Position numbers and translations under genes: made by a program
Shown here: piece after piece, positions 372 to 57,583 of the stretch
Numbering within the stretch: position 1 is the first letter of the stretch
Layout of the letters: each line of letters opens with the position of its first letter
Notes under the pieces: model-generated
Databases searched by the model: none
Seen by the model: the letters and a program-made list of their open reading frames with translations, nothing else
Told to the model about the DNA's origin: nothing
Assembly (NCBI GenBank): GCA_012295275.1
Contig: CM022677.1
Span: forward strand, 26,784,001 to 26,848,000
DNA: 64,000 nt
Origin: Chrysomallon squamiferum
Lineage: Eukaryota > Animalia > Mollusca
Reading direction: 5' to 3'

Positions 372-3300
372 AGCATGGAACTTGGACACCCTGGGTCGTG
401 TATAAAGTGACGAACTGCCTTGGATCGTGTTACCATTATCTGCTGAAGCAGAGATTCTGTGTCCAGCCCAGCTTAAAACTGGGACTCAGGGGCTGTGAGG
501 GGAAACACGAGAACTTCACTCTGCTACCGTGTATCTTTGGACGCTGTAACCTGACTAAACTGAGTGAGTACTTAAACGACAGAAAAGAAAGCAATGTGTA
601 TGTGTGTATGTGTATATATACGTAATAATGTTATATGTGTGCATGTGCGTATCTCTCTCTCTGTGTATATATATATATATATATATTAGTTGTATGCATG
701 CAAGTATGTATATATTTGTATATTTGTATATATATATATTAGTTGTATGCATGTAAGTATGTATATATTTGTGTGTATATATATATATATATATATATAT
801 ATTAATTGTATGTAAGTATGTATAGGTATGTAAACAGATAGTATTCTGCGCATAGATATTTTCGGGAACGCACTGACAAAAAACAAAGTTAAAAGACGAC
901 CTCACAAAGATCAGATGCCGCTGACGAGACTCGAACGTATGACACCCATTCGCTCACACTCCGAAAACATTGTGCGTACGTACGTATGTAGTTTACTTAT
1001 GTATTCGTGCGTGTGTGTATTTGTCTGTTTCAGAAAAAGCTGACTGGGGGATATGGCAGTCGGTGAACAACACGAAGTGCAACACGACGTGCGGGAAGGG
1101 GTACGGCAGAAACTTCCTGCAGCGAACGTGCACGGGCTACGAGTCGTACAGGGTCGTGTCCAGGTGCATCGGCAACAACACCTCCTCGTACCTGTTCATC
1201 TGTGAAGCGTACAGACAGTGTGATGGTAACGATTCAAATTTGTACAACAACAACAACAACAACTACTACAAAGACAACAACAGTAGCAATAATAATAATA
1301 ATAATAATAATAATAATAATAATAATAATAATATATATATATATATATATATATAGAAAGAGAGAGAGGGGATTATATACAAAAATCATCTTTCTGTTTT
1401 AATTCTGTGTATCTTTTCTTCATATTTCTGAGTTTTATTTGCGTTCCTATTTTTATATTTATGATTATGATTATGATTATGATTATTATTATTATTATTA
1501 TTATTATTATTATTATTATTATTAATTTATTAGTATTTGATTTACTCAGAGGAGGAGGGATGGAACAGCTGGGTTAAACTTAAGGACGAGACTGTGTGTC
1601 CACACGAATGTGTGAAGAAAGTGAATTTTACTCGGACTTGTACGATCCGTAAAATTGCCAGACTGGTGAGCATTTGTGAAGGTCCAGATATGAAAACCGG
1701 ATTCGAGGTTTGTTTTGACGGCCTGTGTCACTTTGGTGAGTTGTAGCAGTGTATTCCTTGTGTAGTCCCTCCCTCCCGTTTAGTCGTGTATTCTGAGTAT
1801 ACTCTGTCGCTAGTGTATAGTCATGTAATCCTTGTCTATCTCTAGCGTATAGTCATGTAATCCTTGTCTATCTCTAGCGTATAGTCATGTAATCCTTGTC
1901 TGTCTCTAGCGTATATGCATCTGTTCCTTTTGTACTTTCTCTCTAGCGTACATTCCTGTACTACTTGTGTACTTTCTCTCTAGCGTACATTCCTGTACTA
2001 CTTGTGTACTTTCTCTCTAGCGTATAGTCGTGTACTACTTGTGTACTTTCTCTCTAGCGTATAGTCGTGTACTACTTGTGTACTGTATCTGTAGCATGTC
2101 AAGGATTCCTTTTCTATCTCTAGCGTATAGTCATGTGTTCCTTTTGTTCTTTCTCTCTAGCGTACATTCGTATACTACTTGTGTACTCTCTCTCTAGGGT
2201 ATATTTATGTATTTATTTATTTGTCTTGTTGTTGCTGTTGTTATTAATAAATCTACTGACTATATGAAAGCTAACGGCACGTGGTCACTGTGGAAGAGAC
2301 AGACCGAAGACGCAGTCGCGTGTCCCTCGAACTGCATCCACAACGTCACCTATAAGCGATTCTGCATGCAGGAATATGAGGGTCAACTTTGTATTGGCGA
2401 AAACACGAGCGTCGTCACAGAGGGTTGTACTGGAGACAAATGTGTCCAAAGTAATTGTCGTCCTCGTAGTGTCAACAGTAATGTAGTCGTAGAAGTTGTA
2501 TCAACATTGAAGAAAACTATAGTTTTAGTGACAGTTTAGTTTTATAACGTTTATAATGATGGCATGGTGGCAATAGTAGTAACACCAGCACTAGTATTTG
2601 TAATAGCAATCTGTATTTAATGTACGTATGTATTCTCTCTCTCTCTCTCTCTCTCTCTCTCTCTCTCTCTCTCTCTCTCTCTCTCTCTCTCTCTCTCTCT
2701 CTCTCTCTCTCTCTCTCTCTCTCTCTCTCATCTATTTATCTGTATATTATGTATGCCATTCGTCGTACTTGTAATAATAATAATATATTTACAGTTATGT
2801 TAATATTTGTGTTAATAGTAGTAGTAGCAGTAATAGTGTGTTGTGGTAGTAGCATTTGCAGGAGTAGTAGCAGTAACAGGTACTGTAGGTGATGGCAGTT
2901 ATTGTAATATGGATGTTGTGACGGTGTAGTATATATGGATGTAAGCCATCGTAGTAGTTGTAACCTGTAGCTGAAGTGTAGTAACTATTTTATTTGTAAT
3001 AGTAATTGTAGTAGTAGTTGTAGTTCTAGGAGTAGTTGTAATAGTAGTAGTAGTAGTAGGATGAGTAGTTGTAATAGTAGTTGTAGCAGTAGTAGTATTT
3101 TTAGTAGGGGGGAGGGTAGTAGTAGGGTTAGGGTTAGGGTTAGGGTTAGGGTTAGGTTAGGGTTAGGGTTAGGGTTAGGGTTAGGGTTAGGGTTAGGGTT
3201 AGGGTTAGGGTTAGGGTTAGGGTTAGGGTTAGGGTTAGGGTTTAGTGTTAGGGTTAGAGTTAGGGTTAAGGTTTAGTGTTAGGGTTAGAGTTAGGGTTAG

Positions 3301-57000: not shown

Positions 57001-57583
57001 CTCTCTCTCTCTCTCTCTCTCTCTCTCTCTCTCTCTCTCTCTCTCTCTATATATATATATATATATATACACAAACACATACATAGAGACATACATATAA
57101 ACTATCGTGTTTTTTAAATTTATTTTATCATTTGCTGTATTATTCTTCATGTAAAGTTCTCGTGTTTTTCTTCATGTAAAGTTCTCGTGTTTTTCTACAT
57201 GTAAAGTTCTCGTGTTTTTCTACATGTAAAATTCTCGTGTTTTTCTTCATGTAAAGTTCTCGTGTTTTTCTTCATGTAAAGTTCTCGTGTTTTTCTACAT
57301 GTAAAGTTCTCGTGTTTTTCTTCATGTAAAGTTCTCGTGTTTTTCTTCATGTAAAGTTCTCGTGTTTTTCTTCATGTAAAGTTCTCGTGTTTTTCTTCAT
57401 GTAAAGTTCTCGTGTTTTTCTTCATGTAAAGTTCTCGTGTTTTTCTACATGTAAAGTTCTCGTGTTTTTCTTCATGTAAAGTTCTCGTGTTTTTCTTCAT
57501 GTAAAGTTCTCGTGTTTTTCTTCATGTAAAGTTCTCGTGTTTTCTGCAGAATGAAGAGAAAACTTGACTTACGACGCAGATAG
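51061..57583 (+). CDS. Gene H: signal peptide, Cys-pair mini-exon, 4 TSP1 repeats, TM, 11-aa basic tail (~339 aa)
   Basis: Signal 51061-51112 ([17 protein letters not shown]). 60-nt exon 51424-51483 ([20 protein letters not shown]). TSR 51670-51852 (DGHWNAW..CKKSC). Micro-exon 52603-52629 (VLTDLWEES). TSR 52766-52948 (DGQWSQW..CPESC). TSR 53852-54034 (GRWSRW..CSKLC). TSR 56394-56609, with an alternative in-frame donor at 56594 (RGTWAEW..CDAQC). TM 56834-56915 ([25 protein letters not shown]). Tail 57550-57583 ([10 protein letters not shown]). Summed length 1020 nt. Confidence 0.86.
52985..53500. repeat. ~45-bp GTA-rich minisatellite
   Basis: AGTAATAGTAACAGAGGCAGTAGCAGTAGTTGTAGTAGAAATAGTTGT units; gives a spurious Ser/Cys ORF. 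Confidence 0.88.
54040..54955. repeat. (TACA/TA)n microsatellite field
   Basis: Source of the spurious YIH-rich ORFs. Confidence 0.95.
55020..55930. repeat. ~30-bp minisatellite family TGAATC(C/A)(A/G)TGGA..GTATTAG
   Basis: Two uniform sub-arrays joined by degenerate copies. Confidence 0.88.
57145..57545. repeat. 25-bp minisatellite CATGTAAAGTTCTCGTGTTTTTCTT, whose last copy forms the tail-exon acceptor
   Basis: About 16 copies ending ..CTCGTGTTTTCTGCAG|A at 57549. Confidence 0.92.

Follow-up and report, generated by a model that had tools for sequence, protein, structure and literature searches.

The window analysed here is a 64-kb stretch of the genome of the snail Chrysomallon squamiferum (assembly GCA_012295275.1, contig CM022677.1, positions 26,784,001 to 26,848,000; coordinates below count from the first base of the window), microsatellite-rich animal DNA with 34% G+C, compatible in composition and in tandem-repeat content with the published values for the scaly-foot snail (34.5% G+C; PMC7736800), in which genes A to H, between positions 372 and 57583, form a cluster built on thrombospondin type 1 repeats (TSRs). 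A loose six-frame search of the window yielded 31 rows, 26 of them TSR-like exons, which are divided among the genes as six in A, three in B, one in C, none in E and four each in D, F, G and H. A first-pass annotation had proposed a tandem cluster of eight TSR receptor genes; the cluster is real and its exon counts were right, but only seven of the genes are type-I membrane genes with TSRs, the eighth, E, being a membrane gene that lacks them, and the orientations from A to H (+ + + - - + - +) are mixed, not head to tail.

A phase-1 AG acceptor precedes all 26 TSR exons and an in-frame phase-1 GT donor follows the last cysteine in 25 of them, bearing out the annotation's placement of 26 exons of phase 1-1; the transmembrane (TM) exons are of phase 1-2, and the tail is a single exon in every gene. 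This shared exon grammar, which had been described as signal, TSR, TM and tail exons, held in its phases and one-exon tails but omitted linker exons of 18-60 nucleotides and a half-repeat exon in G and H. The signal exon that had been claimed for each gene was not seen in all: none was found for C in 16900-19396, and A begins before the window. The signal exons of D, F, G and H are closed by the identical donor G|GTTTGT. In GT-AG models the spliced frame is open for A, C, D, F, G and H (6/7 TSR genes), with one hydrophobic segment per open model, on the phase 1-2 exon (hydrophobic 19-mers score 2.3-3.0). The models hold signal, TSR, linker, TM and tail exons only, in agreement with the claim that these genes contain no other domain: vWA, F5/8 and Ig domains are missing from the spliced models, the window has no chitin-binding domain and no long unique open reading frame (ORF) hinting at a further one, and ZU5/death, Sema, GAIN/7TM and metalloprotease domains are absent from the window models, although the 5' end of A, outside the window, could hold one.

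Chance or repeat-derived ORFs were ruled out as a source of the exons by motif shuffles and by a profile built from another species. The window contains 25 instances of the TSR motif, compared with 0 in the reversed window and 0 in 100 block shuffles, and a hidden Markov model made from 74 repeats of the snail Gigantopelta aegis alone recovered 26/26 exons at 20.9-68.1 bits, with the rest of the window scoring at most 9.1.

The comparison with sequencing runs covered 25830-33300 in four runs, the other six genes lying outside, and the D and E transcripts come from metatranscriptome libraries; among 22 runs listed, two RNA runs of the same organism label contained small shares, and no result draws on runs X10-X22, whose word shares were small. 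In RNA contig record 20 of X8, 29410-29604 passes directly into 28756-28848, which is the predicted junction between the first two TSR exons of D (D1 and D2; repeats are numbered in this way throughout), and in RNA contig record 22 of X8, 33157 passes directly into 32719, the predicted TM-tail junction of E. D1 is also covered by RNA contig record 30 of X9, and from contig depth we infer a 5' untranslated exon of D ending near 30799, which depth arithmetic places on the same RNA contig as the D signal exon. Contig depth cannot rank expression, and gaps in RNA cover over D3 and D4 are uninformative. The claim that the exons are spliced as predicted was borne out in RNA for these two junctions, other splicing being predicted from the sequence.

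Gene models and surrounding repeats

Gene A (372..7451, + strand) has its 5' end outside the window and encodes 450 residues as cut; its predicted splicing joins TSR exons 372-563, 1034-1225, 1550-1735, 2271-2450, 5218-5403 and 6008-6187 to a linker (6444-6494), a TM exon (6971-7049) and a tail exon for 35 residues (7343-7451). Gene B (11137..16869, +) comprises a probable signal exon from 11137, whose donor is uncertain, TSR exons 11546-11720, 13024-13206 and 13589-13771, a TM exon (15525-15600) and a long low-complexity tail from 16170. Repeat B1 carries a frameshift near 11665, which may denote a pseudogene or an assembly error; the segment 4070-4480, which resembles 3420-3760 interleaved with a minisatellite, is possibly a consensus artefact, and this counsels caution over the frameshift. 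A second frameshift, in the B tail, was considered and is not required, as the tail is open over 232 residues as it stands. Within 16170-16869, Gly-Gly-Met-Pro repeats are followed in frame by an Arg/Lys/Gln-rich tract; shifted by one base the same tract reads as Lys/Glu/Thr-rich, and the end of the B tail is doubtful. Gene C (19397..21155, +), with an open frame and 5'-incomplete, contains one TSR exon (19397-19579), a linker (20274-20300), a TM exon (20465-20561) and a 29-residue tail with one hexamer resembling an immunoreceptor tyrosine-based inhibition motif (ITIM).

Gene D (23461..29794, - strand; 363 residues) has a signal exon at 29814-29758 with its ATG at 29794, TSR exons 29604-29410, 28848-28675, 27450-27268 and 26398-26207, a TM exon (24042-23958) and a tail exon (23686-23461); its D3-D4 intron contains, at 26690-26940, a very high-copy interspersed repeat (summed depth >100,000 in X1). 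Gene E (32590..33863, -) is a possible model of a small TSR-less membrane protein of about 122 residues, in which a candidate signal exon (33863-33815) and a candidate middle exon (33760-33671), both predicted only, precede a TM exon (33256-33157) and a basic tail (32719-32590); E may be kin to the TSR genes, its exon phases being the sole ground.

Gene F (34935..40020, +; 368 residues) begins with signal exons 34935-34986 and 35906-35935, followed by TSR exons 36197-36367, 37424-37597, 38238-38438 and 38866-39039, a linker (36655-36684), a TM exon (39244-39337) and a tail (39840-40020). A duplicated segment, 21255-22226 and 35134-36169 (659 nucleotides at 96% and 330 at 86%), places an orphan copy of the second F exon downstream of gene C. 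Gene G (41612..48003, -; 350 residues) and its paralogue H (51061..57583, +; 331 residues) stand head to head. G consists of a signal exon (48003-47961), a half-repeat exon (47510-47451), TSR exons 46627-46445, 45121-44939, 44006-43821 and 43544-43314, two linkers, a TM exon (42845-42764) and a 10-residue tail; H consists of a signal exon (51061-51112), a half-repeat exon (51424-51483), TSR exons 51670-51852, 52766-52948, 53852-54034 and 56394-56594, a linker (52612-52629), a TM exon (56834-56915) and a 10-residue basic tail. The half-repeat exon, 60 nucleotides long with two cysteines in both G (47451-47510, -) and H (51424-51483, +), is like the last third of a repeat, and this common remnant supports an origin of G and H by inverted duplication.

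Intronic minisatellites at 28200-28670, 44520-44940, 46630-46920 and 27450-27550 are made of copies of the adjoining splice sites or exon ends (the D2 donor, the G2 3' end and the G1 and D3 acceptors), and these copies could serve as alternative splice sites. An intron of A holds an interstitial TTAGGG array (3124-3415). Beyond the genes, 60665-63420 bears long terminal inverted repeats with arms of about 690 nucleotides, 97% alike, inside an ACT/ACC microsatellite; the element has no long ORF and is likely a non-autonomous DNA transposon.

A short-loop repeat and its relatives

Alignments and spacing counts rest on the 25 intact repeats, with the frameshifted B1 left out. WxxW is invariant in 25/25 (it is also present in B1), all 25 intact exons have six cysteines, and five cysteine columns and an arginine are invariant across the alignment, the sixth cysteine being shifted in some repeats. 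The annotation had stated that the repeats share little beyond WxxW, six cysteines and RxC, with a mean pairwise identity that is indeed only 29% (range 17-51%), but this understates their likeness, which extends to fixed spacings and to position-specific pairs such as G3/H3. WxxW is followed by the first cysteine after seven to nine residues in 25/25, and only seven residues separate the second cysteine from the conserved arginine in 20/25, compared with at least 10 in ordinary repeats; in 19/19 aligned repeats of this short-loop type all six cysteines are invariant. Shortening of the loop costs the repeats the last part of the CSVTCG motif, which is intact in D1 and D4 only, CxxS/TC is found in 11/25 window repeats and an extra tryptophan in 1/25. 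The canonical features of Pfam TSP_1 (WxxWxxW, a CSVTCG-type turn and the gathering score) are not those of the window repeats, and the proposed Pfam check detected one of the 25 and missed 24, although the model of one repeat folds as a TSR. This AlphaFold model, of H2 (pLDDT 83.4), contains three strands (8-12, 20-26 and 46-52); its top Foldseek rows were all TSR entries (best E 0.014), its best structural Z was 5.0, with TSP-1 (root-mean-square deviation 4.0 over 53), and an Atlas search with H2 gave generic TSR clusters only. A profile of 19 short-loop exons matched thrombospondin-1 with E 1e-7, and the best structural and profile matches were repeats of TSP-1, properdin and UNC5. Judged by the predicted fold and the sequence, the window module is a TSR variant of the six-cysteine type.

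Relatives were sought with HMMER, which returned 1429 proteins (the figures rest on the best 150 of them), and with a word-based search (best 120 of 244 matches), whose best per-domain scores went mostly to gastropod proteins with a six- to seven-residue spacer and long loops (Haliotis, Littorina and Gigantopelta). Among 279 proteins examined, the best 150 of the 1429 HMMER matches included, 18 contain at least two copies of the strict short-loop motif and two more a single copy, and no named species other than G. aegis has it. The 18 proteins form ten clusters, all G. aegis RefSeq models automatically named coadhesin-like, hemicentin-1-like or uncharacterized (for example XP_041356563.1, XP_041355971.1, XP_041356418.1, XP_041355826.1, XP_041356393.1, XP_041356405.1 and XP_041355522.1). 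Of 74 Gigantopelta repeats 51 have the short loop, as against 0/18 in three other gastropod proteins. Searching with the Gigantopelta family alignment brought up 21 proteins, which included two family members, both already known, and none new; a search for exon-sized proteins gave nothing at E 0.01, and in a metagenome scan with D3, covering 12/64 parts, the short loop was missing from all 25 loci recovered.

Nine of the ten short-loop clusters lie on one G. aegis contig of 40,821,028 bases, which carries three further long-loop relatives and 12 clusters in all, physical adjacency being read from accession numbers, not coordinates. Most of the G. aegis short-loop proteins have a TM segment, Pfam TSP1 found no match in 10 of the 11 scanned, and several members show recent homogenisation of their repeats. 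Fusions to vWA are seen in two and a fusion to Ig/EGF in one that lies on another scaffold, which contradicts the idea that an ectodomain of TSRs alone defines the family. Among individual members, P0137 combines vWA with short-loop repeats and ends in a tail resembling an immunoreceptor tyrosine-based activation motif (ITAM), short-loop repeats stand beside Ig and EGF domains in P0175, the tail of P0195 contains five tyrosines, and the end of P0023 reads like a TM exon out of frame. The family had been called lineage-specific; it is restricted and clustered, with clustered relatives found only in G. aegis among named species, but it is neither peculiar to Chrysomallon nor absent from the databases. 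From the sequences it is likely confined to peltospirid snails or their kin, and lineage-specific expansions are common in molluscs (10.1101/2024.05.23.594666; this and the papers below are cited for the portions of their text that were available).

Divergence, alleles and tails

To place the repeats, we built a tree from 101 of them by a quick method on 62 columns, dropping isoform P0253 and identical repeats, limiting seven long proteins to four repeats each and including 13 outgroup rows. All 20 window short-loop repeats grouped with 42 Gigantopelta repeats (support of 88 in the Shimodaira-Hasegawa-like approximate likelihood ratio test, SH-aLRT) and with 0/13 outgroup rows. Within this group G3/H3 joined P0161_4/P0188_3 (SH-aLRT 99), F3 joined P0179_3 (94) and D4 joined P0023/P0195 (87); these position-specific groups span both species, indicating that several paralogue types predate the split from Gigantopelta. 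Whole-protein best matches in Gigantopelta show 26-39% identity, those of F and G being P0179 (28%) and P0255 (32%), and the repeats most like H2-H4 are numbers 3-5 of P0161 or those that correspond to them in P0188; the window paralogues are 23-31% identical to one another over multi-repeat alignments. Given this divergence and the mixed orientation, the locus looks like a cluster of long standing that changes fast, and not like the product of a recent amplification. Faster evolution in the window lineage, suggested by long branches, found no support in a per-gene score test (p 0.11, with a Gigantopelta set that was picked by score).

Allelic data bear on D and on pieces of E, the D exons being covered by two DNA runs from two studies; haplotypes below 90% identity and rare variants would escape the comparison, and parts of D1 and E, with little DNA cover, are uninformative. 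Seven exon differences were listed in D (six in D3, one in D4), and 7/7 are synonymous, for which the chance is p 3e-5 under equal rates and 23% synonymous sites, or p 8e-4 if two further differences in the D3 pieces were replacements; transition bias would weaken the result. There were no differences in D1 in X3, X8 and X9, in D2 in X1 or in the E pieces in X8. Every listed exon-bearing D piece is at least 96% identical in the two DNA runs, and up to nine further differences in such pieces would bring allelic divergence to no more than near 3% of the ectodomain. By comparison, alleles of Biomphalaria PTC2 differ by 3-85% (PMC7494358) and allele numbers of Hydractinia Alr1/2 run from tens into the hundreds (10.1101/2022.03.04.482883). 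Gene D does not behave like a polymorphic PTC2 or Alr locus, and the proposed check for allelic polymorphism was, for D, negative.

The cytoplasmic tails, of 10 to 232 residues and mostly basic, are mutually unrelated as the annotation had said, with 0/28 pairs beating shuffles (best p 0.057), and no Pfam family rose above cut-off in six tails and the E middle exon. An ITAM was found in 0/8 window tails, whereas ITIM-like hexamers occur in C, where it is well formed, and in the doubtful end of the B tail; among ten Gigantopelta tails one (P0137) has an ITAM-like pair. With 14 tyrosines to draw on, one or two such hexamers are, by our estimate, about the chance level.

Possible functions and comparison with known systems

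TSR domains are adhesion modules (PMC3748352, PMC7663992), and we tentatively favour the reading that the window genes encode adhesion receptors with paralogue-specific partners. Their products would be type-I membrane proteins with rod-like ectodomains of shortened TSRs, from one to at least six in number, and the partners bound on adjacent cells or in the matrix would likely differ from paralogue to paralogue. The module may descend from a gastropod TSR with a seven-residue Trp-Cys spacer, as in matrix-type proteins of Haliotis, Littorina and Gigantopelta, by the loss of three residues from the turn after the second cysteine, and may have spread through duplication and shuffling of symmetric phase-1 exons. 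The fold would be secured by a core of two tryptophans and one arginine, with three disulphides, leaving exposed residues free to change, so that the paralogues would come to differ in surface; the tails, short and mostly basic, would serve for anchoring or trafficking and not for ITAM signalling, and variety would be found among paralogues and species, not among alleles. Several points weigh against this account. The adhesion role is borrowed from the domain family at large, the tree was quickly built from 62 columns, the fold scores are modest (no Foldseek E below 0.001, best Z 5.0), and the allele test is limited to D, the most canonical gene, with 35 variants outside the listing. C has its ITIM-like hexamer and P0137 its ITAM-like pair, and the divergence to 26-39% cross-species identity matches the pace at which recognition genes often evolve.

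A bolder proposal, which we hold to be doubtful, is that vent peltospirids have turned a TSR module invisible to Pfam into a receptor complex with the role that Ig-domain clusters have elsewhere. On this view the short-loop genes A, F, G and H would be subject to positive or balancing selection and would act in the choice of gametes or bacterial symbionts, with D as no more than the conserved founder. Should this hold, no earlier report of a TSR-based recognition locus in an animal could be found in print.

Gamete-surface recognition, by species-specific sperm or egg membrane proteins that evolve fast between species and are uniform within them, we consider unlikely; abalone lysin and sea-urchin EBR1 are parallels, and the 26-39% identity to Gigantopelta counterparts fits this pattern, as do the synonymous-only listed D variants. 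The Arg/Lys-rich and low-complexity tails and the TSR-bearing sperm surface proteases of ascidians (PMC8849226) also speak for it, but the libraries that yielded D and E were metatranscriptomes, none marked gonad. That the genes encode receptors for microbes or symbionts on symbiont-bearing or exposed epithelia is distinctly unlikely. In favour, G. aegis, the only named carrier of the family, hosts endosymbionts (PMC7895826), TSR proteins promote colonisation in Aiptasia (PMC5446238) and are candidates in Sacoglossa (PMC7663992), and transcripts are present in metatranscriptomes. The same Aiptasia study, however, speaks against a pattern-receptor role for membrane-bound TSRs, the CSVTCG end is lost through the short loop in all but D1 and D4, and the two peltospirid endosymbioses are independent (PMC7895826), yet paralogue types are common to both species; the link may only mirror which genomes are annotated.

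That the cluster is a polymorphic locus for self/non-self or parasite recognition, comparable to Hydractinia Alr or Biomphalaria PTC1/PTC2, is very unlikely, even though the layout, broken members included, is the same (10.1101/2022.03.04.482883) and C has an ITIM-like motif and P0137 an ITAM-like pair. The alleles of D are at least 96% identical per listed exon-bearing piece, the window has no Ig domain, and the 7/7 synonymous variants together with the lack of an ITAM in any of the eight tails argue against such a locus for D; on the same figures the annotation's suggestion of diversification for allo/immune recognition is so far unsupported. It is likewise very unlikely that the proteins are membrane anchors fastening the epithelium of mantle or foot to a chitinous or mineral matrix in shell, operculum or sclerites: the nearest long-loop relatives P0006, P0010 and P0110 carry chitin-binding or vWA domains and supplement file 3 of PMC11871041, a table of the matrix proteome of the scaly-foot snail, includes a coadhesin-like protein, but that entry could not be matched to the window family, the window has neither kind of domain, and such paralogue divergence is not needed for anchoring. 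Whichever function applies, this TSR subtype is missed by Pfam surveys, published vent-snail receptor counts may omit a clustered family under the name 'coadhesin-like', and the family offers a small concrete set of surface proteins for questions of symbiont acquisition or gamete specificity.

Among known TSR proteins, UNC5, semaphorin-5, BAI, ADAMTS and TRAP carry Ig/ZU5/death, Sema, GAIN/7TM, metalloprotease or vWA domains, which are absent from the window models, and coral coadhesin, a multi-domain skeletal matrix protein, has vWA and F5/8 domains, neither of which occurs in the window. The vWA, F5/8 or Ig domains that coadhesin and hemicentin have next to their TSRs are thus no part of the window models. 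Coadhesin (B3EWZ3; PMC3748352) is a TSR-containing protein of adhesion type and the source of the automatic name. The locus appears to be undescribed, no account of a clustered short-loop TSR family having been found in the literature searched, which lay mainly beyond subscription titles and with some supplements aside: the paper on the G. aegis hologenome (PMC7895826) makes no mention of thrombospondin, TSP, coadhesin or hemicentin in its main text, and the available part of PMC7736800 has no mention of thrombospondin. Hemicentin-1-like membrane families are expanded in Chrysomallon according to PMC11871041, which groups them with Ig-named proteins; they could not be tied to the window genes.

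Proteins combining TSRs with a TM segment are a named class in gastropods, in sea slugs (PMC7663992), and this class, the mussel multi-TSR protein P0020 and vertebrate THSD7A have the same ectodomain of TSRs only with one TM segment. The class was found through Pfam TSP1, with no cluster described, whereas 24/25 window repeats are missed by that model, their loop being shortened and the third tryptophan nearly absent. Closest are the G. aegis coadhesin-like and hemicentin-1-like models, which have the same short loop, the same order of signal, three to eight repeats, TM segment and short unrelated tail, and position-specific repeat types in common with the window genes, but which differ in their 26-39% identity, homogenised repeats, occasional vWA or Ig/EGF fusions and automatic names. 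Hydractinia Alr and Biomphalaria PTC1/PTC2 resemble the window in clustered, divergent single-pass genes with one domain per exon, unrelated tails and pseudogenes; their extreme allelic polymorphism and their ITAM/ITIM tails are not seen in D or in most window tails, respectively, and where Alr uses Ig domains and PTC2 no known domain, the window genes use TSRs.

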